Source of the DNA: Patescibacteria group bacterium
Lineage (GTDB): Bacteria; Patescibacteriota; Patescibacteriia; Patescibacteriales; WJLG01
Assembly (NCBI GenBank): GCA_028707065.1
Contig: JAQTUZ010000001.1
Location: 98,737 to 162,736 of the forward strand
Reading direction: 5' to 3'
Length of the DNA stretch: 64,000 bases
Made by a program: the position numbers and the translations under genes. Under the pieces are notes generated by a model. It was not told the DNA's origin. It did not search any database and was given only the letters and a program-made list of their open reading frames with translations. The first letter of the stretch is position 1, and each line of letters opens with the position of its first letter. Positions 420 through 61,548 of this stretch are shown here, piece after piece.

Positions 420-3293
420 ATGGCAAAAGGAAAAGAAAAATTAATAATTATCGACGGGAACGCCTTGATCCATCGCAGTTTTCACGCCCTGCCGCCGACT
501 TTGCGCACCAAAGACGGGGAGCTGGTCAACGCGGTTTACGGTTTTTCGGCCGTTTTGCTCAAGGCCTGGCGCGAATTGAAACCGGATTATATCGCCCTGA
601 CTTTAGATATGAAGGGGCCGACTTTCCGGCACAAGCAATATAAGGAATATAAAGCCACGCGCATCAAGGCGCCGCAAGATTTGTATGATCAAATTCCTCG
701 CGTCAAAGAAGTGGCTACGGCTTTTAATATTCCGATTTTTGAGTTGCAAGGTTTTGAAGCCGATGATCTGATCGGCACGATCGACAAAAAAGTCGATGCG
801 AGCGTGGAAAAAATAATCGTGACCGGTGATCTGGACACTTTGCAATTGATCGACGATGACACCAAAATTTTTACCATGGGCCACGGGCTTTCGGAAAGCG
901 TGGTTTATGATGCGGCTAGAGTTAAGGAGCGCTATGGGCTTACGGTTGACCAGATGATCGATTACAAAGCTTTACGCGGCGATCCTTCGGATAATATTCC
1001 CGGCGTCAAAGGAATTGGCGAGAAAACCGCGACTAAGCTTTTGCAAGAATTTGGGACTCTAGAAAATTTATATAAAAAGCTCCAAATTTCAAATTTCAAA
1101 TTTCAAATTTCGCCGAGAGTTACAGATTTATTAATTAAACACAAGAAGGACGCTTTCTTGTCGAAAGAACTCGCTACGATCAGATTGGACGTGCCGATAA
1201 AATTTGATTTGGAAAAATGCCGGGCTTATGATTTTGACCGGGAAAAAGTGGCGGGAATTTTCAGCGAGCTGGGTTTTAAGTCGCTTTTGCCGCGAGTGCA
1301 GGATTTGGTTTCCGCCCATTTTAAAGTTTCGGATAAATCCGGCTACGCCAAGGCTACGGCGGATAAATTTGAACGCGATCGCACCGAATTTAAATATATT
1401 TTAGTTGATGACGATAAAAAATTCGCTAAATTTTTGGCCGCGTTAAGCAAACAGAAACAATTTACGATTGATACGGAAACGACCGGATTTGACCCGTTAT
1501 TGGAGAATCTGCTTGGCATCAGTTTTTCTTGGCGTGAAAGCGAGGCTTATTTTATTGTCGCAAATAAGTCCCCTCTTGAGAGGGGTGGACGGCCCCTGGC
1601 CGGACAGGGTGTGTTAAAGGTGGTGAGCCAAAGTAGTCTATTTAAGGATGATAAAAAGGAAAGTACGGAGAAAAATAATCATCCGTGGCTGGAAAAATTG
1701 AAATCAATCTTGGAAGATGAGAAAATAAAAAAATGCGGGCATAATATTAAATTCGATCTGCGGGTGCTGCGCCATGCCGGGATTGAGATGAAAGGGATCG
1801 AGTTTGATACGATGGTCGCCTCATATTTATTAAATCCAGGCACTAGAGCGCATAATTTGGACGCGGTGACTTTTGCCGAGCTGGGCTTGGAAAAGATCAG
1901 CACCGAAGATCTGCTCGGATCGGGCAAAGACAAAAAAACTTTTGCCGCGGTCGAAACGGAAAAATTGGCGATTTATTCCTGCGAGGACGCCGATTGCACC
2001 AACCGGCTGGTGGCAAAATTGGCCAAGCATTTGCGCGATAAGGAATTAAGCAAACTTTTCGAGGAGATTGAAATGCCGCTGGTTTCAGTTTTGGCCACCA
2101 TGGAAGATAATGGTGTTATGATCGATAAAGATTTTTTGGCGGCCATGGATAAAAAAATTGCCAAAAAAATATCAACGCTGGAAAAAAAGATCTGGGATTT
2201 GGGCGGCGGCGAGTTTAACATTAATTCCACCCAGCAGTTGAAAGAAGTCTTATTTGAGAAATTAAATATTTCCACCGCCGGGATCGGCCATACCAAGACC
2301 GGTTATTCCACGGCCGCCGATGAATTGGAAAAATTAAAGCACGAGCACGAAATAATTCCGCTGATCCAGGAATATCGCGAACTGGCCAAATTGCAATCTA
2401 CTTATATTTTAGCTTTGCCGACTTTGATCAATCCCGTAACCGGCCGCGTCCATACCAGCTTCAATCAAACCGTCACCGCCACCGGCAGGCTTTCTTCGTC
2501 TGATCCGAATTTGCAGAATATCCCGATCCGCACCGAGCTGGGCCAGGAAATCCGCCATGCTTTTATCGCCCAGCCGGGCTGGAAAATAGTTTCGCTCGAC
2601 TATTCCCAGATTGAATTGCGCCTGGCCGCTCATTTATCCGGCGACCAAAGAATGATCGATACTTTTGAGCGCAGTTTGGATATTCATACTTCCACGGCCG
2701 CTGCGATCAATAATGTAAAGATTGAAGACGTTACCAAAAAAATGCGCCAGGAAGCCAAGGCAATCAATTTTGGAATTTTATACGGCCAGGGCGCGTATGG
2801 CTTATCGCAAAATACCGATATGCCGCTAAATCGCGCCAAGGAATTTATTGAGCATTATTTTGATCTCTATAAAAATATTAAAACTTATACCGAAGATATG
2901 GTAGAGTTTGCCCGTAAGAACGGCTACGTGGAAACATTATTCGGCCGTCGCCGCTATCTGCCCGAAATCACTTCGCAAGTGGCGCCGGTTCGCGCCGCGG
3001 CCGAGCGCATGGCCGTCAACACGCCCCTGCAAGGCACGAATGCCGATATGATCAAAAAAGCAATGATCTCGGCGCAAAATTTAATTGATGAAAAATATTC
3101 TGATAGTGTGAAGATGATCATTCAAGTCCATGACGAATTGGTTTTTGAGATGCGTGAAGACAAAATGAAAGAAGCCGCCGGCCGGATTCAGGACATCATG
3201 CGCGACATTCTGAAATTAAAAGTCCCGGTAGTGGTGGATATTGAGATCGGGGAGAGTTGGGGAGAGATGAATCGGCTCGAAAACAAAAAGTAA
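420..3293 (+). CDS. polA: DNA polymerase I (5' nuclease, 3'-5' exonuclease-like, polymerase domains)
   Basis: 957 aa; N-terminal LIIIDGNALIHRSFHAL 5' nuclease, FTIDTETTG exo motif, polymerase motifs DYSQIELR, KAINFGILYG, QVHDELVFE. Confidence 0.95.
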   Translation: MAKGKEKLIIIDGNALIHRSFHALPPTLRTKDGELVNAVYGFSAVLLKAWRELKPDYIALTLDMKGPTFRHKQYKEYKATRIKAPQDLYDQIPRVKEVATAFNIPIFELQGFEADDLIGTIDKKVDASVEKIIVTGDLDTLQLIDDDTKIFTMGHGLSESVVYDAARVKERYGLTVDQMIDYKALRGDPSDNIPGVKGIGEKTATKLLQEFGTLENLYKKLQISNFKFQISPRVTDLLIKHKKDAFLSKELATIRLDVPIKFDLEKCRAYDFDREKVAGIFSELGFKSLLPRVQDLVSAHFKVSDKSGYAKATADKFERDRTEFKYILVDDDKKFAKFLAALSKQKQFTIDTETTGFDPLLENLLGISFSWRESEAYFIVANKSPLERGGRPLAGQGVLKVVSQSSLFKDDKKESTEKNNHPWLEKLKSILEDEKIKKCGHNIKFDLRVLRHAGIEMKGIEFDTMVASYLLNPGTRAHNLDAVTFAELGLEKISTEDLLGSGKDKKTFAAVETEKLAIYSCEDADCTNRLVAKLAKHLRDKELSKLFEEIEMPLVSVLATMEDNGVMIDKDFLAAMDKKIAKKISTLEKKIWDLGGGEFNINSTQQLKEVLFEKLNISTAGIGHTKTGYSTAADELEKLKHEHEIIPLIQEYRELAKLQSTYILALPTLINPVTGRVHTSFNQTVTATGRLSSSDPNLQNIPIRTELGQEIRHAFIAQPGWKIVSLDYSQIELRLAAHLSGDQRMIDTFERSLDIHTSTAAAINNVKIEDVTKKMRQEAKAINFGILYGQGAYGLSQNTDMPLNRAKEFIEHYFDLYKNIKTYTEDMVEFARKNGYVETLFGRRRYLPEITSQVAPVRAAAERMAVNTPLQGTNADMIKKAMISAQNLIDEKYSDSVKMIIQVHDELVFEMREDKMKEAAGRIQDIMRDILKLKVPVVVDIEIGESWGEMNRLENKK
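1083..1110 (+). repeat. (CAAATTT)x4 heptamer tract inside polA
   Basis: Four perfect tandem heptamers read in frame as QISNFKFQIS. Confidence 0.85.
1331..1368 (+). repeat. 22-nt GC-rich insert flanked by 8-nt direct repeat GGATAAAT inside polA
   Basis: GGATAAAT-CCGGCTACGCCAAGGCTACGGC-GGATAAAT; 30 nt extra in total, giving DK-SGYAKATA-DK in frame. Confidence 0.6.
1569..1618 (+). repeat. family A GC-rich hairpin element, in frame in polA
   Basis: TCCCCTCTTGAGAGGGGTG + GGCCCCTGGCC hairpin + GGGTGTGTTAAA; peptide SPLERGGRPLAGQGVLK. Confidence 0.8.
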
Positions 3294-3373: not shown

Positions 3374-3440
3374 TCCCCTCTTGGGAGGGGTGCCGAGCCC
3401 GCTTGTCCGCCTCGGGCGCGGGCGAGGCGGGGTGGGTTTA
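3374..3440 (+). repeat. family A GC-rich hairpin element, intergenic
   Basis: TCCCCTCTTGGGAGGGGTG + CCGCCTCG...CGAGGCGG hairpin + GGGTGGGTTTA downstream of polA. Confidence 0.75.
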
Positions 3441-4024: not shown

Positions 4025-5659
4025 TTGTCAATGAAAATCGTTAAAAATATCTTAAAATCGTTGAATAACAGGAAAATCGCCATGCTCGGGCTGGGGGTGG
4101 AAAATTTGGCGTTGGTGAAATATTTGTTACGCCGCAGTCCCGCGGCGGAGACTGCGGCGGGGCAAGGTTTGCACATTACCGTTTGTGATCCAAAGTCGGC
4201 GGCGGAATTGGGCGACAGATATTTGGAAATCAAGCAGCTGGCGAAGAAGAATAAATTGCCGGAAATAATTCTGATGACCGGCAAGAATTATGACGCGCAT
4301 CTGGCGGATTTTGACATTATTTTCCGTTCGCCCGGCTATCCGCTGTTCAATCCGAATTTGCTCAAAGCGAAAAAGGCCGGCGTGATAATTTCCAGCCCGA
4401 TGAAATTATTTTTTGAATTGTGTCCGACGAAAAATATCATCGGCGTCACCGGCTCGAAAGGTAAAGGCACGACTTCGTCGCTGATTTATGAAATTTTAAA
4501 AAAAGCCACAACCACCCCCGGAACCACCCCCAAACCCCTCCTTCGAAAGGAGGGGAGAGTTTGGCTGGGTGGAAATATCGGCAATGCGCCGTTTGAATTT
4601 ATCGAGAAAATAAAGCCGAAGGATTTCGTGGTTTTGGAATTATCCAGTTTTCAATTGGAAGATTTGGATGTGAGTCCGCATATTGCCGTGGTCACGAATT
4701 TATTCAAAGAACATTTGGCTCCGGCCGATCCGAACAATCCGAATTATCATCGGTCAATGAAAGATTATTGGGCGGCGAAAGCGAATATTTTCTCGCACCA
4801 GCAAAAAAATGATTATTTGGTTATAAATGAAAAATTGAAAAACAAAATTCCCCTCTCGAGAGGGGTGGCCGCGCCGCGCGGACGGGGTGTGTTAAATGGC
4901 GGCACAAAAGTAATCTTTTGTTCTAGCTCTGCTTTGCCAAGTAATTTGATTGGGGCGCATAACAAAGAAAACTTGGCGGCGGCCGAGGCGGTGGCGAAAA
5001 TTTTGAAGATCAAGCCGGAAATCGTGGCGCGGGCGGTGAAAAATTTCCAGGGCTTGCCGCATCGGCTCGAATTTGTGGCTGAAATTAACGGCGTCAGATA
5101 TTTTGATGATAGCTTTGCGACCGTGCCCGATGTTTCGGTAATCGCGCTTAAAGCGGTCGGCGGAAAGTCCCCTCTCGAGAGGCCCACCTACGCTAAAGCT
5201 CCGGTAGGGCAAGGGTGGCCAACCTTAAAAGAGATAGCTTGTCCAACGAAGCTCCGCCGCGGAGCGAAGTTGGAGGGTGTGTTAAAGTTGGGTGGTAGTA
5301 AAAGCGAGATTGCTTCGCGAGGCGCTCGCAATGACAAAAATATAATATTGTTGGCCGGCGGCGCGGACAAAGGTTCGGATTTTAAAAAATTCGCCCAAGA
5401 AATAACCAAGCGCGTAAAATATTTAATTTTATTCAAAGGCAAAGGGACGGATAGATTGAAGAAAGAATTACAAATTACAAATTACAAATTTCCGATCATT
5501 GCAGTTGACACTATGAAAAAAGCTGTGGAAATTGCCAGACGAGAGGCGGAGTTGGGCGACGTTATCCTGCTTTCCACCGGTTGCGCCAGCTTCGGCTGTT
5601 TTAAAAATTATAAAGAACGAGGTGACTTTTTCAAGGAGGAGACGCTAAAAAACAAATAA
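4025..5659 (+). CDS. murD: UDP-N-acetylmuramoylalanine--D-glutamate ligase with several repeat-derived insertions
   Basis: 544 aa; Mur ligase P-loop GVTGSKGKGTT, GGNIGNAPFEF, HRLEFV, LLAGGADKGSDF; extra segments match dispersed repeats. Confidence 0.9.
   Translation: MSMKIVKNILKSLNNRKIAMLGLGVENLALVKYLLRRSPAAETAAGQGLHITVCDPKSAAELGDRYLEIKQLAKKNKLPEIILMTGKNYDAHLADFDIIFRSPGYPLFNPNLLKAKKAGVIISSPMKLFFELCPTKNIIGVTGSKGKGTTSSLIYEILKKATTTPGTTPKPLLRKEGRVWLGGNIGNAPFEFIEKIKPKDFVVLELSSFQLEDLDVSPHIAVVTNLFKEHLAPADPNNPNYHRSMKDYWAAKANIFSHQQKNDYLVINEKLKNKIPLSRGVAAPRGRGVLNGGTKVIFCSSSALPSNLIGAHNKENLAAAEAVAKILKIKPEIVARAVKNFQGLPHRLEFVAEINGVRYFDDSFATVPDVSVIALKAVGGKSPLERPTYAKAPVGQGWPTLKEIACPTKLRRGAKLEGVLKLGGSKSEIASRGARNDKNIILLAGGADKGSDFKKFAQEITKRVKYLILFKGKGTDRLKKELQITNYKFPIIAVDTMKKAVEIARREAELGDVILLSTGCASFGCFKNYKERGDFFKEETLKNK
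4511..4555 (+). repeat. family B element (with a 9-nt partial duplication), in frame in murD
   Basis: ACCACCCCCgga-ACCACCCCCAAACCCCTCCTTCGAAAGGAGGGG; peptide TTPGTTPKPLLRKEG right after the P-loop. Confidence 0.85.
4849..4896 (+). repeat. family A element, in frame in murD
   Basis: TCCCCTCTCGAGAGGGGTG-GCCGCGCCGCGCGGAC-GGGGTGTGTTAAA; peptide IPLSRGVAAPRGRGVLN. Confidence 0.85.
5168..5285 (+). repeat. long-A element (about 118 nt), in frame in murD
   Basis: Collinear with the intergenic copy at 60891-61008, about 85 percent identical by eye; shared GCTCCGCCGCGGAGC hairpin. Confidence 0.85.
5307..5339 (-). repeat. family C hairpin (ATTGC/GCAAT variant), in frame in murD
   Basis: Reverse complement reads TTTTGTCATTGCGAGCGCCTCGCGAAGCAATCT, collinear with TTTTGTCATCCTGAGCGCCGCGCGAAGGATCT at 10466. 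Confidence 0.75.
5467..5491 (+). repeat. (ATTACAA)x3 heptamer tract inside murD
   Basis: Tandem heptamers read in frame as LQITNYKF. Confidence 0.8.
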
Positions 5660-7519: not shown

Positions 7520-7849
7520 ATGAAAACTTATAATAAATTAGTTAGAGACAGAATCCCCGAAATTATCAAGGCTGATGGCGAGAATCCTAAGACTAGGATT
7601 TTAGACGATACTGAATACAAGAAAGAACTCTTGAAAAAAGCGGTCGAGGAAGCCAACGAACTTTTGGCCGCCGGTGAAGATAAGAAAGAATTAATTAAAG
7701 AAATCGGCGATATTGAGGAAGTTTTAGAATATATAATAAAAAGTTTTAATCTTGATGGGGGTGAAATAGAAAAACTTAAATCAATGAGGAAAGAAAAACG
7801 AGGAGGTTTTGATAAAAGAATTTTTCTTGAATGCACGGAAAAGGTATGA
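7520..7849 (+). CDS. MazG-like nucleoside triphosphate pyrophosphohydrolase (house-cleaning type)
   Basis: 109 aa; N-terminal YNKLVRDRIPEII and acidic helices (EEANE, EIGDIEEVLE) typical of this family. Confidence 0.65.
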   Translation: MKTYNKLVRDRIPEIIKADGENPKTRILDDTEYKKELLKKAVEEANELLAAGEDKKELIKEIGDIEEVLEYIIKSFNLDGGEIEKLKSMRKEKRGGFDKRIFLECTEKV

Positions 7850-8912: not shown

Positions 8913-10463
8913 GTGTTATGTGTTATGTGTTATATTATTTTTTTATCTATATTTTTAATTCTGTTTTCTGTTTTGGCCTGGCGTCGGCTTGATTGGGCGG
9001 TAATGCTGATTATCGCCGGATTGCCTTTATATTTGGTCAGATTTAAGGTATGGTCGATACCAATGACGCTTTTAGAAGCGATGATCTTGATCGCTTTTTT
9101 TTGTTGGATTATTTTTAAAACAAAATTTTGGGATTTTTTACGAGGGAAATATAAAATTAAAGATTTTTTAAAAAATAGTCCGTGGAATAAAAAGGGCAGC
9201 GCGGAGGGGCGAAGAAGATATCCTTTCGGCATCGAAATAATTTTACTTTTGATCATTTCGTTTGCCGCCGTGGGCGTGGCGCATTTTTCCGCAACATCTT
9301 TGGGGCTTTGGAAGGCCTATTTTTTTGAGCCGATCTTGCTGTACATTCTGATCTTGAATATATTTCAGGAGTCCCCCCTCCTTTCTAAGGAGGGGTTTGG
9401 GGGTGGTTATAGTGGCGTTAATAAAATCGGCTTGAGTCTGGCCGTTGGCGCCTTGATCGTTTCTTCTTATGCTATCTTCCAAAAGTTCACCGGTTTCGGC
9501 ATTGATAATCCGCTCTGGGCGGCCGAAACAACGCGCCGGGTGGTTTCATTTTTCGGCTATCCCAACGCGGTAGGTTTGTATCTTGGGCCGGTCATTCCGG
9601 TTTTAACCGCCTTTTTATTTTTGCCGCCCAAGAAAGATTTTTCTCCGCTCGAGAAAAAAATTCATTATCCTCTTCCCGAAGAAAAAATTTCCGCGATTAG
9701 TTTGTCAAAAGGTTTTTTAGGGTTTATTATCGTTTTGTCATTAGCGGCGGTTTATTTTGCCAAATCGGACGGAGCGCTGATTGGCTTGGCCGTTGCCGCT
9801 TTTATTTTTTGTTTGTTTATTAATAAAAAAGCGCGGATCGCGGTTCTGGCCGTTGTCGTGATCGCCGCGATCGGAATTTATTTTTATCCGCCGATTGCCA
9901 AGCCGCTCGAGAGAAAAATAACCATCGAAGATTTTTCCGGACAGGTGCGCCGCTTGCAATGGAAGGAAACCTTAATGATGCTTAACGGGGAGAAGAAGAT
10001 TTGGGGGATCGGCCTGGGGAATTTTCAGCAAGCGGTTGCGCCCTATCATCAGCCGGGATTTTTTTATGATGACGGCACTGATCCTTTATTCCACCAGCAC
10101 ACGGTTGAAAGCGCCGCCGTTCGCGCCCGCACCTGGCAGCCGGTGGAAATATATCTGTATCCGCACAATATCATTTTAAATTTTTGGGTAGAATTAGGCT
10201 TGGCTGGGCTATTTTTATTTGTTTGGATTTTCGGCAAAACAATTTATCTTTTATCATCTATCGTTTATCATTTTAAGGCGAAAAAAGATAAAACAAGTTT
10301 ATTTTTAGCCTTAGGCTTGCTATCCGCAATAATTGTTATTATCGTCCATGGTCTGGTCGATGTCCCTTATTTTAAGAACGATCTATCTTGTATTTTTTGG
10401 ATTTTAGTGGCAATATTGGTTTTGTTGGATTTGAGAAATAAAGATAAACGAATTGAATGTTGA
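8913..10463 (+). CDS. O-antigen ligase / Wzy-like polytopic membrane protein
   Basis: 516 aa, more than 10 TM helices with a large loop (YPHNIILNFWVELG type motif); contains a family B repeat. Confidence 0.55.
   Translation: MLCVMCYIIFLSIFLILFSVLAWRRLDWAVMLIIAGLPLYLVRFKVWSIPMTLLEAMILIAFFCWIIFKTKFWDFLRGKYKIKDFLKNSPWNKKGSAEGRRRYPFGIEIILLLIISFAAVGVAHFSATSLGLWKAYFFEPILLYILILNIFQESPLLSKEGFGGGYSGVNKIGLSLAVGALIVSSYAIFQKFTGFGIDNPLWAAETTRRVVSFFGYPNAVGLYLGPVIPVLTAFLFLPPKKDFSPLEKKIHYPLPEEKISAISLSKGFLGFIIVLSLAAVYFAKSDGALIGLAVAAFIFCLFINKKARIAVLAVVVIAAIGIYFYPPIAKPLERKITIEDFSGQVRRLQWKETLMMLNGEKKIWGIGLGNFQQAVAPYHQPGFFYDDGTDPLFHQHTVESAAVRARTWQPVEIYLYPHNIILNFWVELGLAGLFLFVWIFGKTIYLLSSIVYHFKAKKDKTSLFLALGLLSAIIVIIVHGLVDVPYFKNDLSCIFWILVAILVLLDLRNKDKRIEC
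9375..9407 (-). repeat. family B element (inverted orientation), in frame in the Wzy-like gene
   Basis: Reverse complement ACCACCCCCAAACCCCTCCTTAGAAAGGAGGGG differs at 1 nt from 4523-4555; peptide SPLLSKEGFGGG. Confidence 0.85.
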
Positions 10464-10465
10464 AT

Positions 10466-10623
10466 TTTTGTCATCCTGAGCGCCGCGCGAAGGATCTATT
10501 GTCCGAGAAAAATATCAAAATATCATTAAATATTAGAATCGATATGGCGATAAAAATTTTGGAAACGGAAATTTAACCTTCCTGCAATATAGATCCTTCG
10601 TCTCACGACTCAGGATGACAAAA
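10466..10623. mobile_element. MITE-like element with family C terminal inverted repeats
   Basis: TTTTGTCATCCTGAG..GAAGGATCTAT at the left, its reverse complement at the right, about 85 nt AT-rich core, no ORF. Confidence 0.65.
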
Positions 10624-10629
10624 TAATTT

Positions 10630-10723
10630 GGAGATGTGCCAGAGTGGTCGCCCGCTACGTCGGCCTTTGGCCGCGAGCGGGTCCGCGCACGCCGCCATCG
10701 GGCGGCGATGTCGCGGAAATGGG
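10630..10723 (+). pseudogene. duplicated 5' part of tRNA-Ser interrupted in the D-loop by a family E element
   Basis: GGAGATGTGCCAGAGTGGTCG [67 nt] AATGGG versus intact GGAGAGGTGCCAGAGTGGTCGAATGGG at 10980. Confidence 0.7.
10651..10717 (+). repeat. family E GC-rich double-hairpin element
   Basis: CCCGCTACGTCGGCC..GGCCGCGAGCGGGTCCGCGCA..ATGTCGCGGA; a reverse-complement copy lies at 15234-15297. Confidence 0.85.
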
Positions 10724-13870: not shown

Positions 13871-14034
13871 GGGGTCTGTTGCTGAATGCCGTATTTGTCC
13901 TAAATCTTCAAATTTCGGTAAATTTTTTCAAAAATATTTTCGCCGATATTGTTATATCGCCTCAAAAATTTTTGAAAAAATTTCCTCAAAATTTGAAAAT
14001 TTATGCCTAAAAGAGCATTCAGCAATAGACCCCC
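13871..14034. repeat. long imperfect hairpin / MITE-like element
   Basis: GGGGTCTGTTGCTGAATGC at the left versus GCATTCAGCAATAGACCCC at the right (18 of 19 complementary), AT-rich partly palindromic core. Confidence 0.6.
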
Positions 14035-14630: not shown

Positions 14631-14688
14631 GTCCTCCTTCGCGGCATTGGCGGGCTTAGCCCGCCGAAGTCCGCTTCGGCGGACGAAG
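14631..14688 (+). repeat. GC-rich three-stem element abutting the 5' end of tRNA-Gly
   Basis: Outer CCTTCG/CGAAGG, inner GGCGGGCttaGCCCGCC and GTCCGCttcgGCGGAC. Confidence 0.6.
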
Positions 14689-14761
14689 GCGGGAGTAGCT
14701 CATCTGGTAGAGCGCGACCTTCCCAAGGTTGAGGCAGCGGGTTCAAGCCCCGTCTCCCGCT
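14689..14761 (+). tRNA. tRNA-Gly (anticodon CCC)
   Basis: Acceptor GCGGGAG/CTCCCGC, anticodon arm CGACC-TTCCCAA-GGTTG. Confidence 0.9.
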
Positions 14762-15218: not shown

Positions 15219-15317
15219 GAGAGTTCTGGGGTTTCCGCGACATTCCGCCATGGGCGGATGCGCGGACCCGCTCGCGGCCCCTGGCCGACGTAGCGGGCAA
15301 GTCCCAGTACCCCGACA
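15219..15317 (+). pseudogene. duplicated 3' part of tRNA-Pro(CGG) with a family E element in the T-loop
   Basis: GAGAGTTCTGGGGTT [64 nt] AAGTCCCAGTACCCCGACA, starting 7 nt after the intact tRNA. Confidence 0.7.
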
Positions 15318-34557: not shown

Positions 34558-35823
34558 ATGGCTCTGGTAAATAAAACTATTTTTGTCTTAGCATTTTTAG
34601 CGTTGTTTTTTTCGGCACGGCAAGTTTTGGCGGCCGATAATATCAAGACAACGGAATTTTATATTTATGATTCGGCTCTGCCGGTCAGTTCGGCGGTCAG
34701 CCAGGATTTTTCCGTCTATATCGGCGATAATATCGGCGCGGTAACCGATCCGATCAAATCCGCTTACTTCAAGATTTCCGGAACTTATACCGGCGGCGGC
34801 ACGCTTGATTTGAAGATTAATTCCGGGAATTCCAAAATTTATAACTTGCCAACGGTCGGCAGCCCGACTTATTTCGAATTGCTTTATGCCGATACTTCCT
34901 CGGTCATTGATCCTTCCAGCGCGGGAAATTATAGTTATAATTTCAGCCTGACTCCTGATAGCGTCACTATTTACGGCCTGGGAGTGAAACTGGATCTGAC
35001 TTACCAATATCAGCCGGCCTTTTGTCCGGACGGCTCGAGCCAAAAAGTTAAGACCACGGAATTTTACGTTTACGACTCTGATTCAGTTATCAATCCCGAC
35101 TCTAACATAAGCCAGGATTTCCCCGTTTATATCGGCGATAATATCGGCGCGGTAACCGATCCGATCAAGTCCGCTTACTTCAAAGTTTCCGGAACTTATA
35201 CCGGCGGCGGAAGCATAAATTTCACTCTTAATTCGGGCAATTCCCAGATTTACAATTTGCCGTCAGCGGTCAGCCCGACGTATTTTGAATTGCTTTACGC
35301 TGACACTTCGGCGATGATCGCTCCTGGCTCGGCGGGAACTTATTATTTTAATCTGGGCATCAACCCGACCGGCGTGACGATCTATGGCGCGGGAGCGGCG
35401 CTGGACCTGACTTATCAATATGCTCCGCCTTCTTGCGCTGGCTTGCCGCCGACCGGAGAATTGACTTCAGCTATTTTCGATACGATTCAAACCGCGGCGT
35501 ATAATTCGATTATGTGGCAAGGGACGTTCAACGGCGGCAATGGCCGGGTGCGCTTCAAGTTGGCGACTTCCAACAGTTCGAGCGGGCCGTGGAATCCGGA
35601 GAATTTTTTCGGCAGTTCAGACAATGGCGTAACCTGCGACAATGTCTCTTGGTATGATCCGGGCGCGCCAGAAACGCCGATCGAAATAACTTGCGCTCCG
35701 GCCAATCATAATAATCAGCGTTATTTCCGCTATAAAGTCCAGCTTTGTTCCTATAGTAATTGCACGGATTCGGGGAGTGCCAGCCCGGAAGTAAATAAAG
35801 TTATCGTTAATTGGAGCCCATGA
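34558..35823 (+). CDS. secreted protein with a tandem 135-aa repeat
   Basis: Signal peptide; two repeats starting TTEFY(I/V)YDS and ending LDLTYQY.P. Confidence 0.7.
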   Translation: MALVNKTIFVLAFLALFFSARQVLAADNIKTTEFYIYDSALPVSSAVSQDFSVYIGDNIGAVTDPIKSAYFKISGTYTGGGTLDLKINSGNSKIYNLPTVGSPTYFELLYADTSSVIDPSSAGNYSYNFSLTPDSVTIYGLGVKLDLTYQYQPAFCPDGSSQKVKTTEFYVYDSDSVINPDSNISQDFPVYIGDNIGAVTDPIKSAYFKVSGTYTGGGSINFTLNSGNSQIYNLPSAVSPTYFELLYADTSAMIAPGSAGTYYFNLGINPTGVTIYGAGAALDLTYQYAPPSCAGLPPTGELTSAIFDTIQTAAYNSIMWQGTFNGGNGRVRFKLATSNSSSGPWNPENFFGSSDNGVTCDNVSWYDPGAPETPIEITCAPANHNNQRYFRYKVQLCSYSNCTDSGSASPEVNKVIVNWSP

Positions 35824-51557: not shown

Positions 51558-51565
51558 ATTAGCGT

Positions 51566-51661
51566 ATTAGTTGATTAGTTAATTGGTTAATTAGTTTACG
51601 ATTTAATAGGCAAAAATCATTAACCCATTCAACCAATTAACTAATTAACCAATTAACTAAT
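51566..51661. repeat. family F AT-rich hairpin ending at a start codon
   Basis: 31-nt arms of TTAGTTAATTGGTTAA-type sequence, 27 of 31 complementary, 34-nt loop; the right arm ends 1 nt before ATG 51662. Confidence 0.75.
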
Positions 51662-52321
51662 ATGAATCCCATCAAACTAACAATCAAATCCGAACTATTT
51701 TCCATCCTGCTGATCGCGATCTCTATCGCCGCCTCGTTTTATTTTTACGCGCATTTTCCCGACCGGGTGATAACTCATTGGGATTTCGCCGGCGAGCCGA
51801 ACGGCTGGAGCGGCCGCGCTTTTGCCGCTTTTTTCTTTCCCGCGCTGTTTATCGCCATGTATCTGTTATTTATTTTTTTACCGATGCTTGATCCCAAAAA
51901 GGACCGTTATGCCGAATTCGCCAAAATTTATAATGTTTTTCGAAATCTGATTCTGGCGGTTTTGGTGGTTGTTTATTTTGTCGCCTCATTCAATAATTTA
52001 GGCGTAAATTCCAACGTCGGGCTTTGGGTTCCCGGAGTGATCGGCCTGTTGTTCATTGTTTTAGGCAACTATCTGGGAAAGATCAAGCGGAATTGGTTCG
52101 TCGGCATCCGCACTCCCTGGACCATGTCCTCCGAGACAGTCTGGAATAAAACTCACCGTTTCGGCGGCAAGGTTTTTATTTTCGGCGGCGTTTTAATGAT
52201 CATCACCGGTTTCGCGCCGCTCTCCTGGCGCTTGCCAATATTCATCGCCGATATTATCATATTATTATTCGGAACCATCATATATTCGTACTTGGTTTAT
52301 CGCAAGGAAAAGAAAAAATAA
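51662..52321 (+). CDS. SdpI/YhfL family membrane protein (DUF1648 plus SdpI domains)
   Basis: FPDRVITHWDFAGEPNGW and WFVGIRTPWTMSSETVWNKTHRFGG motifs. Confidence 0.7.
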   Translation: MNPIKLTIKSELFSILLIAISIAASFYFYAHFPDRVITHWDFAGEPNGWSGRAFAAFFFPALFIAMYLLFIFLPMLDPKKDRYAEFAKIYNVFRNLILAVLVVVYFVASFNNLGVNSNVGLWVPGVIGLLFIVLGNYLGKIKRNWFVGIRTPWTMSSETVWNKTHRFGGKVFIFGGVLMIITGFAPLSWRLPIFIADIIILLFGTIIYSYLVYRKEKKK

Positions 52322-52381: not shown

Positions 52382-53197
52382 ATGCTCGATGATTTTATGT
52401 CTTTCTTCATCGATAGCGCCGACAATCCGAAAATAAAAAATATCCTCAAATTGCAAAGGCCCCACGAGCGCAAAAAGCAGGGGGTAGTTTTGGTTGAGGG
52501 CTATAAAGAAATTCTGGCCGCACTCAAGGCCGGTTTGAATTTGGTGGAAATTTTTTATTGCGCGACTTATGGCGGAGAAAATCCTTCTTTTTTCGGCGTG
52601 GACAAAGACAAAAAATTAATCGCCAATGTTTCGCGGGAAGTTTTTGAAAAAATCACTTATCGCGAAAAGCCCGATGGCTACATCGCGATTTTTTTGGCTC
52701 GAAATTTAAAACTCTCTGATGTAAAATTAAGCGCGGCGCCGCTGGTTCTGGTGATCGAGGGCGCGGAAAAGCCCGGCAATTTCGGAGCGATCCTGCGCAC
52801 CGCTGATGCGGCCGGAGTCGATGTGGTCATAGCCAATGATCCGCAATTGGATATCTATCATCCCAACGCCATCCGCGCGAGCATTGGCGCGGCTTTTGAC
52901 AAGCAGATCGCCATCGCCACCCGCGAAGAAACGATCGCCTGGTTAGCTGAAAATAATATTACGACTTACGCCACTTCTAAGCGCGCCACCAAAGTCTATG
53001 TTGATTTTGATTATACTCAAGGCACGGCTTTTATTTTGGGCGCCGAACATGCCGGCTTAAGCGAAGAATGGAAAGATTCGGCTGACGAATTCATCACCAT
53101 CCCGATGACCGGTATCGTCGATTCGCTCAATCTTTCCGTCAGCGCCGGCATCTTGCTTTTCGAAGCTGTCCGGCAACGGAAAAAAATCCCCTCTTGA
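52382..53197 (+). CDS. SpoU/TrmH family RNA 2'-O-methyltransferase
   Basis: PGNFGAILRTADAAG, ILGAEHAGLS, IPMTGIVDSLNLSVSAGILLFE. Confidence 0.85.
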   Translation: MLDDFMSFFIDSADNPKIKNILKLQRPHERKKQGVVLVEGYKEILAALKAGLNLVEIFYCATYGGENPSFFGVDKDKKLIANVSREVFEKITYREKPDGYIAIFLARNLKLSDVKLSAAPLVLVIEGAEKPGNFGAILRTADAAGVDVVIANDPQLDIYHPNAIRASIGAAFDKQIAIATREETIAWLAENNITTYATSKRATKVYVDFDYTQGTAFILGAEHAGLSEEWKDSADEFITIPMTGIVDSLNLSVSAGILLFEAVRQRKKIPS

Positions 53198-53235
53198 GAG
53201 GGGTGGCTCGCGCCTCGCGGGACGGGGTGTGTAAA
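53187..53235 (+). repeat. family A element supplying the last codons and the stop of the TrmH-like gene
   Basis: TCCCCTCTTGAGAGGGGTG-GCTCGCGCCTCGCGGGAC-GGGGTGTGTAAA; the TGA within CTCTTGAGAGG is the stop. Confidence 0.8.
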
Positions 53236-60480: not shown

Positions 60481-60590
60481 ATTAGTTACTTAGTTAATTA
60501 GTCAATTAGTTGAATGGTTGATAAACGGATGACTTAATTTGCTAATAAACTAAAAATTTATCAACCAATTGACTAATTAACCAATCAACT
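60481..60590. repeat. family F AT-rich hairpin ending at a start codon
   Basis: TTAATTAGTCAATT..GGTTGATAAA pairs with TTTATCAACC-AATTGACTAATTAA; the right arm ends at ATG 60591. Confidence 0.7.
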
Positions 60591-60887
60591 ATGTCTTATC
60601 AAGAACATATCGAAGTAGTGGAGGGGAAGCAGCCGAAGAGCAAAATCATGCTTTACGGCTTAAGCACTTGCATGTGGTGCGAAAAAGCCAAAGAACTTTT
60701 GGACGAACTGGGAATTGCTTACAGCCATCTGACGGTTGATCAACTGGAGGGCGCCGATCAGGATGAAGCTTATGAATTGGTTTCCAAATATAATCCTGAC
60801 CAATCTTTCCCGACAATTGTTTTGGACGACGGCAAAAGAGTGATCATCGGTTTTAGCGAAGACGAATTGCGAGCTTTGGCCGCATAA
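60591..60887 (+). CDS. glutaredoxin-like (thioredoxin-fold) protein
   Basis: 98 aa; CMWC active site, then FPTIVLDDGKRVIIGF. Confidence 0.75.
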   Translation: MSYQEHIEVVEGKQPKSKIMLYGLSTCMWCEKAKELLDELGIAYSHLTVDQLEGADQDEAYELVSKYNPDQSFPTIVLDDGKRVIIGFSEDELRALAA

Positions 60888-60890
60888 TAT

Positions 60891-61008
60891 TCCCCTCCCC
60901 AGGAGGCCCGCCTCCGCTAAAGCTGCGGCAGGGCAAGGGTGGCTCATCTTGAAAAAGATAGCTTGCCCAGCGAAGCTCCGCCGCGGAGCGAAGTTGGGGG
61001 GTGGGTTT
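60891..61008 (+). repeat. long-A element, intergenic copy
   Basis: Collinear with 5168-5285 in murD. Confidence 0.85.
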
Positions 61009-61023
61009 CATTAAATAATTATC

Positions 61024-61548
61024 ATGGAAAAAATAGTCATTCCGCCAAATGAAACCGAAGACCTGTTTAACAAACTGACTCTGCAAGGAGCCGGCCGTGG
61101 TTATTTTTTGAATCACAACGAAAAAATGGCGAAGAGCCTGTGCGAAGCCTTGTTGAAAAATGAAAAGCGCTACGGCCATCAGGTTTGTCCTTGCCGCCTT
61201 TCGGCCGGCAGCCGCGAAGCTGACCTGGACGTAATTTGTCCGTGCGATTATCGCGATCCTGATCTCCTTCAATATGGCGTCTGTTACTGCGGCCTCTACG
61301 TCACTAAAAAAATCTTTAACGATAAAACGCCGACCAAACCGATTCCCGAGCGGCGCCCTAATAAAGAAATAAGATTACAAAATAAACAAAAATACATGGA
61401 AGAACAAAACCAACCCAAAAATATCAACAAATTGCCTTATCCCGTGATGCGTTGCTCAGTCTGCGGTTACATCTGCGCCCGCGACGAAGCCCCCGAAGTC
61501 TGCCCGATCTGCGGCGCTTCTCACGACCGGTTCCAAAGATTCATTTAA
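61024..61548 (+). CDS. ferredoxin-thioredoxin reductase catalytic subunit-like protein fused to a rubredoxin-like domain
   Basis: CPCR...CPCDY...CYCGLY matches the FTR catalytic Cys pattern; C-terminal CSVCGY...CPICG. Confidence 0.75.
   Translation: MEKIVIPPNETEDLFNKLTLQGAGRGYFLNHNEKMAKSLCEALLKNEKRYGHQVCPCRLSAGSREADLDVICPCDYRDPDLLQYGVCYCGLYVTKKIFNDKTPTKPIPERRPNKEIRLQNKQKYMEEQNQPKNINKLPYPVMRCSVCGYICARDEAPEVCPICGASHDRFQRFI

Follow-up and report, generated by a model that had tools for sequence, protein, structure and literature searches.

The pneumococcal BOX elements follow a boxA-boxB(n)-boxC plan and lie essentially between genes, and their ends show recognisable inverted similarity, while REP/BIME sequences, which carry a GTAG/CGTC head, are mobilised by RAYT (Y1/HUH) transposases. 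Yeast mitochondria contain mobile GC clusters as well as byps, the latter being skipped by the ribosome. The Rickettsia palindromic elements (RPEs) are repeats of about 150 bp in ten families; R. conorii has 44 of them inserted, and almost half of these lie within open reading frames (ORFs) as in-frame fusions (PMC10969869). BOX and intragenic ERIC sequences have been mentioned beside RPEs (PMC10969869), and coding palindromes are also described from the mitochondria of Nematomorpha (PMC6649704). Here we analyse a stretch of 64,000 nucleotides, referred to throughout as the window, from a Patescibacteria group bacterium (assembly GCA_028707065.1, contig JAQTUZ010000001.1, positions 98,737 to 162,736 of the forward strand), in which a GC-rich element that we call long-A occurs once in frame inside the cell wall gene murD and once between two genes. 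Patescibacteria genomes are streamlined, at about 1 Mb. In our judgement long-A is probably a compound palindromic repeat like RPEs, BOX and REP, non-autonomous and behaving as selfish DNA. No description of long-A, of the sequence of its inner module B or of its peptide was found in the literature searched by topic and by sequence and peptide strings.

Copies and nested anatomy of long-A

The intergenic copy of long-A is flanked by a glutaredoxin gene (60591-60887) and an FTR-B/rubredoxin gene (61024-61548); it starts 3 nt past the glutaredoxin stop codon and ends 15 nt before the FTR-like ATG. An earlier reading of the letters and their ORFs, made without database searches (the sequence-only reading), had described it as collinear with positions 5168-5285 in murD, and the MAFFT alignment of the two confirms this, with the correction that the murD copy, rightly located, is best delimited at its 3' end as 5168-5287. 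The hand count of about 85 percent identity agrees with the 84% obtained over the whole element in a global alignment and with the 88% of an ungapped 105-nt match reported by the repeat finder (5179-5283 vs 60903-61007, family D4), and the single 1-nt indel appears as a 1-nt change of the start-to-start offset within the 5' hairpin. This hairpin reads TCCCCTC-TCGA-GAGG in the murD copy and TCCCCTCC-CCA-GGAGG in the intergenic copy; it had been said to differ in sequence while staying a hairpin, and a hairpin is indeed kept in both, but the differences lie mostly in the loop and the apical pair. The murD translation given in the same reading is exact. Two shared strings, AGGGCAAGGGTGGC (0.2 expected) and GAAGCTCCGCCGCGGAGCGAAG (0 expected), each have exactly two occurrences in the window.

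Searching with the pattern GCTNCGGNAGGGCAAGGGTGGC led to a third copy in the metagenome contig L001 (L023 is identical), and further copies are present in L076 and L098, all of them from other Patescibacteria assemblies; the remaining metagenome match to this pattern, L002, lies in a high-GC gene and is due to chance. The five distinct copies lie at non-homologous sites across four genomes, are 75-88% identical overall and can be aligned end to end, linker included. No additional long-A copy was seen in about 1 Mb of retrieved loci. The stricter pattern AGGGCAAGGGTGG...GATAGCTTG had no match in the genome collection, which consists of GTDB representatives and does not include the genome of the window; it was too strict, as L001 and L098 have GACAGCTTG. 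At the protein level, a MurD identical to that of the window is on record in NCBI (P0001). A word-indexed search with the 40-aa peptide returned nothing although P0001 contains the peptide exactly, which makes negatives from such short queries unreliable, and an exhaustive search of the 50%-identity representatives gave two weak matches only, so coding long-A copies in the murD frame are either rare or hidden behind representatives.

Both further copies and structure-preserving substitutions, whose joint absence the sequence-only reading had named as telling against it, were found. The copies differ by A-T versus G-C pairs in the stem of module B, by G-U wobbles and by a 3' hairpin swap in L001, where CCAGCCCC/GGGGCTGG has taken the place of the whole GCTCCG/CGGAGC hairpin with the helices otherwise kept; the preservation of helices across five sequences is suggestive rather than statistical. 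In L001 and L098 the element starts 1-6 nt past the stop codon of the upstream gene on the same strand, so that, with the window copy, three of the four intergenic copies directly follow a same-strand stop codon. The L076 copy lies between two genes on the opposite strand and is antisense to both.

Long-A is built on the shell of a shorter repeat, family A, which has a 5' CCCCTC/GAGGGG hairpin and a 3' GGGGTG(T/G)GTT tail, and its ends match those of the four other family A copies in the window (Table 1), as had been proposed. The proposal that long-A consists of a family A shell and some 70 nt of cargo is likewise supported, as orthologous murD sites differ by 69 nt. These sites were compared in L100, L102 and L103, which are syntenic with the window over polA-murD-glycosidase-EamA-Wzy. 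In L103 the site is empty (...GGAAAG / AAAAATATC...). L100 and L102 contain at the same murD codon a 51-nt short-A, AAG/AAT TCCCCTCTYGAGAGG GGTGGC G(T/C)GTCCCTGACGCGAC GGGGTGTGTTAAAG T(C/T)GG, with a central hairpin of 16 nt and the peptide SPLERGG(V/A)SLTRRGVLK, while the window reads AAAG TCCCCTCTCGAGAGG (CCCACCTACGCTAAAGCTCCGGTAGGGCAAG) GGTGGC (CAACCTTAAAAGAGATAGCTTGT CCAACGAAGCTCCGCCGCGGAGCGAAGTTGG A) GGGTGTGTTAAAG TTGG. The 3' extension TTGGnTGGnnGnAAAA is common to the window, L100 and L102 and missing from the empty L103 site, and the three filled sites therefore go back to one ancestral insertion.

Judged from these aligned sites, the murD long-A is a short-A enlarged by 69 nt (23 codons). 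What was gained is the 31-nt module B, placed exactly between GAGG and GGTGGC with an ambiguity of at most 1 nt and no target duplication, together with a 55-nt segment that replaces the 16-nt central hairpin. The cargo, as its sequence reads, is made of two recurrent modules, B and C, which are independently found elsewhere. The linker between them contains CTTG(C/T)CC, which is able to base-pair with the tail of B, GGGCAAG. Since the composite, with its non-palindromic linker, is present at unrelated sites, it also spreads, or converts other A elements, as a unit. Members of family A fall into size classes of 45, 47, 65, 75 and 116-118 nt, mainly through their internal hairpins; the 75-nt copy in L001 has another B-like insert at the same point after GAGG, which, with the 65-nt copy downstream of polA in the window, indicates that nesting is a general habit of the family. 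By pattern search, A shells were found only in the window and in its close relatives L100, L102, L103 and L001.

The junction of the glutaredoxin and FTR genes is likewise polymorphic. It is a 1-nt spacer in L120/L121 (FTR 80% identical) and is occupied by an unrelated palindrome, GTCATTCCGA...TCGGGATGAC, in L117-L119 (FTR 91% identical). Orthologous sites that are empty or filled with an unrelated repeat suggest that no site needs long-A. Between the window and L100/L103, copies of repeats that do not occupy orthologous sites share 94-97% identity, against 71-82% for syntenic coding DNA. The palindromic family at this junction, at 9889-10000 in L117 (the same in L118 and L119), comprises TGTCATTCCGA...TCGGGATGACA and CTTCGCGAGGCGCTC...ATGAC types, and related pieces are present in the window at 5312-5335 (murD) and 10456-10492 (after the Wzy gene).

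Modules B and C and the coding copies

An exact 21-nt pattern, CGCTAAAGCTNCGGNAGGGCAAG, retrieved 97 loci with module B (CCCNCCTNCGCTAAAGCTNCGGNAGGGCAAG) from the genome collection. B stands alone in about 90 of them and is part of a full long-A in three (L023, L076 and L098). The host labels comprise Levy-, Woese-, Ames-, Roizman-, Gottesman-, Shapiro-, Falkow-, Moran-, Nomura-, Staskawicz-, Vogel-, Harrison- and Berkelbacteria, along with Pacei- and Saccharibacteria, and a few metagenome-assembled genomes (MAGs) are labelled, as recorded, Gammaproteobacteria, Elusimicrobia, Dehalococcoidales, Desulfobacteraceae and Nanoarchaeia. The last label is probably wrong, because the MurD encoded in that MAG is bacterial and the FTR shares 91% identity with that of the window. 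That MAG, labelled 'Candidatus Nanoarchaeia archaeon', also has at L117 389-1803 a bAvd and reverse transcriptase pair resembling a diversity-generating retroelement (DGR). Module B was absent from 2.9 million viral contigs; carriage by phages was considered and rejected, the 12 viral matches to a shorter pattern being due to chance.

The eight 5' positions of B that were left free in the search are nearly invariant and the flanks are variable, so the boundaries of the module are sharp at 31 nt. Its stem is 95.8% paired (36 distinct sequences), with a covariation of 0.139 compared to 0.054 in shuffles (0 of 500 reached it) that collapses when the partners are slid. Positions 4 and 23 are paired in 88 of the 97 copies, as T-A in 72, G-C in 11, C-G in two, A-T in one and T.G in two, the other nine being unpaired (permutation p<1e-4), and the two copies of the window have A-T and G-C at this pair. 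The exact pattern inflates the uniformity of B, as about a dozen more diverged B-like hairpins lie in the same loci, and the extreme uniformity is therefore partly an effect of ascertainment.

Module C is a two-tier hairpin in which a GC hairpin is enclosed by two CGAAG motifs and these by N4-5 and N4-5'. It occurs 21 times in the retrieved loci, compared to one to three times in shuffles. By a strict test C lies 21-33 nt downstream of B in 11 of 99 B copies and upstream of B in none; L001 and L076 are likely further cases that fail the test by slight variants. The order B then C is found in four composites, namely long-A, those in L003 and L015, and a multi-copy Microgenomates element (L039, L043, L053, L061, L062 and L096). 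A Microgenomates composite of about 130 nt, ...CCAGATTCTGTCACTCGTA...[module B]...[module C]...CCTTTACTCGTGCCAC..., is present in L024, L039, L043, L053, L061, L062 and L096, in several copies per genome, and has no Rfam match.

The host of the coding long-A, ORF 4031-5659 (542 aa), encodes a MurD-type Mur ligase with a MurD-like N-terminal domain and Mur ligase middle and C-terminal domains. Its Pfam matches break off around the inserts, of which there are five (Table 1), with Mur ligase domains on both sides of long-A; the first insert ends in GGGCAAG, as does module B. Relatives of this MurD range from 425 to 574 aa and have, at the same five hot spots, differing GC-rich repeat-derived peptides or none, giving a mosaic, non-tree-like pattern across orthologues. 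In an AlphaFold2 model built on the MurD alignment (mean predicted local distance difference test, pLDDT, 73.6), residues 379-433, corresponding to the long-A peptide and the next insert, have a pLDDT of about 30 and no secondary structure, and lie in the C-terminal domain between a helix (366-377) and a strand (438-443). The peptide of the short-A insert, residues 276-289, has a pLDDT below 50. According to this model the inserted peptide would be a disordered loop compatible with the fold, and there are orthologues without the segment.

About 24 of the 97 B copies lie within long ORFs, 23 of them in the sense orientation, and the host genes include those for YchF, NusA, PNPase, IF2, AtpA, GyrA, aminoacyl-tRNA synthetases, UvrC and DnaK. 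Almost always they are read as PS(F/S)AKA(S/T)EGQ, which is the frame that gives YAKAPVGQ in murD. This strong frame bias argues that the inserts are translated and not removed. Removal as an intron or intein was rejected, given the length of 120 nt, the lack of a match to any intron family and the frame and orientation bias of the genic copies. In the intergenic copy of the window the 1-nt indel puts a TAA in the murD-type frame (counted from the first shell base); the frame that reads B as AKA is open throughout, which is not significant at 57-64% GC. At one codon of ychF (FLTA-PSSAKASEGQ-G..EVRAWT) the identical 31 nt of B occur in L014, L056, L059 and L074, whose YchF proteins are only 47-55% identical.

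Table 1. Location of long-A, its parts and related repeats in the window
Feature	Position	Strand	Description
Long-A, copy 1	5168..5287	+	In frame in murD; 120 nt = 40 codons; peptide SPLERPTYAKAPVGQGWPTLKEIACPTKLRRGAKLEGVLK
Shell 5' hairpin, copy 1	5168..5182	+	TCCCCTC TCGA GAGG; common with short family A
Module B, copy 1	5183..5213	+	CCCACCTACGCTAAAGCTCCGGTAGGGCAAG; 31-nt hairpin between GAGG and GGTGGC; frame YAKAPVGQ
Shell remnant GGTGGC and A-rich linker	5214..5242	+	CTTGTCC able to pair with GGGCAAG tail of B
Module C, copy 1	5243..5273	+	CCAA-CGAAG-GCTCCG CCG CGGAGC...; two-tier hairpin with symmetric GAA/GAA internal loop
Shell 3' tail, copy 1	5274..5287	+	AGGGTGTGTTAAAG
Long-A, copy 2	60891..61008	+	Intergenic; module B 60907-60937, module C 60967-60997
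Short family A	1569..1615	+	In frame in polA
Family A, 65 nt	3374..3438	+	Enlarged central hairpin; downstream of polA
Short family A	4849..4893	+	In frame in murD; peptide IPLSRGVAAPRGRGV
Short family A	53187..53232	+	Last three codons and TGA stop (53195-53197) of SpoU-type rRNA methyltransferase ORF 52382-53197
Stand-alone module-C-type hairpin	14660..14693	+	CCCGC-CGAAG-TCCGC TTCG GCGGA-CGAAG-GCGGG; abuts tRNA gene
murD inserts	4130-4166; 4522-4558 (-); 4849-4893; 5168-5287; ~5305-5349		Five GC-rich hairpins, all in frame; ~100 extra residues

Several other repeats were noted in the window. AT-rich arrays of 8-nt units (TTAACYAATTAACTAA...) at 51558-51667 and 60483-60594 form inverted repeats upstream of two plus-strand genes, the ORF at 51662 and the glutaredoxin gene, and may be operator-like sites. 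A cluster of tRNA genes spanning 4.5 kb is enclosed by a 49-nt GC-rich inverted pair (10650-10698 and 15250-15298, 86% complementary) and contains a 70-nt AT-rich inverted repeat at 13871-14033. ORF 34558-35823 contains a 300-nt direct repeat (34699-34998 and 35110-35409; spacing 411 nt, identity 76%), which has the look of a duplication within the gene.

Explanations for the spread of long-A

If long-A is a selfish palindromic repeat, we infer that its hairpins would be recognised on single-stranded DNA by an enzyme acting in trans. Candidates for it are a transposase of the HUH/Y1 type, like those of REP/RAYT and IS200/IS605, and other nucleases or recombinases. Further insertions would be drawn to hairpins already in place, and nested mosaics would result. 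Insertions would survive only where they do little harm, that is, in frame and stop-free in surface loops, where they would be translated, or else just past stop codons, and benefits such as the stabilisation of mRNA 3' ends would be secondary. Several observations weigh against this explanation. Only five long-A copies were seen, which is a small number, and the expression and translation of the inserts are something that we infer from their reading frames. Terminal inverted repeats of the kind that define a MITE are not clear, as TCCCCTC... and ...GGGGTGTGTT share only CCCC/GGGG. AAAG/AAAT flanks both sides of several A copies, at 4/4 positions for those at 4849 and 5168 and at 3/4 elsewhere, and this weak 3-4 nt AAAK could be a target duplication, on an A-rich background. 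No parent insertion sequence was seen in the window or related loci, and a tblastn search for relatives of IS200 TnpA and of the E. coli RAYT, which is a weak test, gave no match in the fragments of about 1 Mb. The short-A in polA is 52/53 identical between the window and L100 (7936-7982), whose flanks there are only about 60-75% identical with no co-conversion tract, and it is absent from L103, the closer relative by flanks; an identity of this order would fit constraint at the nucleotide level or site-specific re-insertion better than neutral junk. Precise loss of the polA copy is a further option. Finally, the conserved order of B and C in unrelated composites hints at a functional unit.

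These last points lead to the main rival, that long-A, or the B-C core within it, functions as a structured nucleic acid, such as a stabiliser or processing site of mRNA 3' ends, a motif of RNA or single-stranded DNA bound by a protein, or a small RNA, with the coding copies as tolerated by-products. The position of three intergenic copies just past same-strand stop codons would agree with it, as would the covariation of the B stem, the fixed B-C order, the recurrent GAA/GAA internal loop of module C, the near identity of the orthologous polA copies and the fact that copies are as similar between genomes as within them. We nevertheless regard it as unlikely. The same sequence is read as protein in murD, and B is in many housekeeping genes; the L076 copy is antisense to both of its neighbours, and orthologous sites are empty or hold something else. 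Rfam searches of the window and twelve loci found only tRNAs at the gathering threshold and nothing credible at E<10. No terminator- or promoter-like site was found within the intergenic copy of the window; a promoter-like site does precede the glutaredoxin gene, and the copy is therefore probably inside a bicistronic transcript. Single-sequence folds are only mildly better than those of shuffles (z -1.0 to -1.9), and the pairing of a palindrome can persist by templated (quasi-palindrome) mutation without selection on RNA. Growth of long-A in place, stepwise from a short-A palindrome by slippage, template switching or hairpin-templated synthesis, with an immobile element and likeness due to convergence or gene conversion, would account for the orthology of the murD long-A to a short-A and for family members that differ mainly in the size of their internal hairpins, and the shell ends, 15 and 13 nt long, could serve as guides for conversion. 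These ends are, however, very short for recombination, 97 loci from many classes hold B in near-identical form and C recurs elsewhere, the full composite with its linker is at non-homologous sites in four genomes, and the glutaredoxin/FTR junction suggests that long-A arrived there at a site without a prior short-A; we think this origin very improbable. Chance similarity was also weighed, as was an artefact of assembly, since every sequence used is from a metagenome assembly and assemblers can be misled by repeats; either is hardly conceivable given an E value of 1.5e-24 in a local blastn search of one window copy against the other, the same composite across projects and assemblers with k-mers longer than 31, the intact reading frame of an essential gene across long-A and the identical MurD on record.

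Module B could alternatively be the footprint or recognition site of site-specific recombination or homing that swaps gene ends between lineages, long-A being a short-A that was hit in this way. The precise placement of B in the A shell without target duplication and its presence at one ychF codon in four genomes with diverged YchF proteins are in line with this, and about 8 of 98 B loci are flanked by a diverged duplicate of the adjoining gene end, with mostly synonymous differences. On the other side, flanking duplications are missing from about 90% of B copies and from both long-A copies of the window; no recombinase gene is linked to B in the retrieved loci, and the exact search pattern makes B look more conserved than it is, so we consider this explanation quite improbable. 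The duplicates adjoin genes for GatB in L030 (B at ~5346-5376, - strand), LeuRS in L092 (B at 7674-7704) and L088, MiaB in L094, DnaG in L042, RadA in L090, UvrC in L060 (internal) and YchF in L028 (3' end). What is duplicated is the first 10-13 codons of gatB, leuS, miaB, dnaG and radA, an internal part of uvrC, and the last codons and stop of ychF; the mini-ORFs upstream terminate at, or close to, the true start codon. Almost all differences are synonymous (5/5, 3/3, 4/4 and 5/5 in third position, with the serine switches AGT/TCT and TCT/AGC, and the stop kept), as would follow from the divergence of homologous gene ends under selection but not from a recent target duplication, and the pattern suggests that gene ends of a different lineage have been joined at B. 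The template and variable repeats of a DGR were rejected as the source of these duplicates, the differences not being adenine-specific, and so was Cas1-type integration, the inserted sequence being constant. As a long shot, there may be a phylum-wide system, with B as its mobile or recognition core, that targets particular sites in conserved genes and pre-existing hairpins and is tied to the replacement or duplication of gene ends from other lineages; the synonymous duplicates, the shared ychF codon and the fixed place of module C downstream of B speak for it. If this were true, long-A would record one insertion of B into a short-A, and Patescibacteria would have in B-C a new type of very small element for homing or recombination, or else a structured signal.

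Comparison with described palindromic repeats

If long-A is, as we think probable, a selfish palindromic repeat, it would be a second independent bacterial case, beside Rickettsia, of such palindromes inside essential proteins, and would offer a way to approach the machinery by which elements made only of hairpins are moved. The A shell, module B and module C also provide a searchable vocabulary for cleaning gene calls, protein alignments and the annotation of "hypothetical peptides".

Like the RPEs, long-A and the repeats related to it are short palindromes that lie both between genes and in frame in unrelated housekeeping genes, encode peptides compatible with the fold of their hosts and have no known transposase. 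The features that define repeats of the RPE kind are present, namely a multi-copy palindrome of about 50-150 nt, intergenic as well as stop-free genic copies and a position predicted to be compatible with the fold. The host belongs to an unrelated phylum, Patescibacteria, so that long-A is not counted among the Rickettsia families RPE-1 to RPE-10 proper, to which no kinship in sequence would be expected. Long-A differs from RPEs in being modular and nested, with a shell that holds two independently recurring hairpins, and in the reach of module B, which extends over many classes of its phylum; families of RPEs are found at the level of a genus. The elements described here are, at 31-120 nt, shorter than RPEs, and several strike the same protein loop in different lineages.

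BOX elements share with long-A conserved terminal modules and variable internal ones that produce size classes, and both are non-autonomous and form hairpins; in long-A, unlike BOX, the internal modules are free-standing elsewhere and many copies are coding. REP sequences resemble it as GC-rich imperfect hairpins of 20-40 nt with a bulge, often just past stop codons and in composite arrays, with high conservation within and between related genomes. However, the A shell, B and C are without a GTAG/CGTC head, many of their copies are coding and not extragenic, and the modules are nested instead of alternating in arrays. The GC hairpins of mitochondria similarly invade the coding sequence of AT-richer compact genomes at recurrent hot spots, although those systems are organellar, and byps are skipped while the frame bias seen here argues for translation. 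RPEs are thus the closest behavioural analogue of long-A and BOX the closest architectural one, with REP/RAYT, in which a hairpin by itself can be the mobile unit, as the most plausible model for its mechanism.

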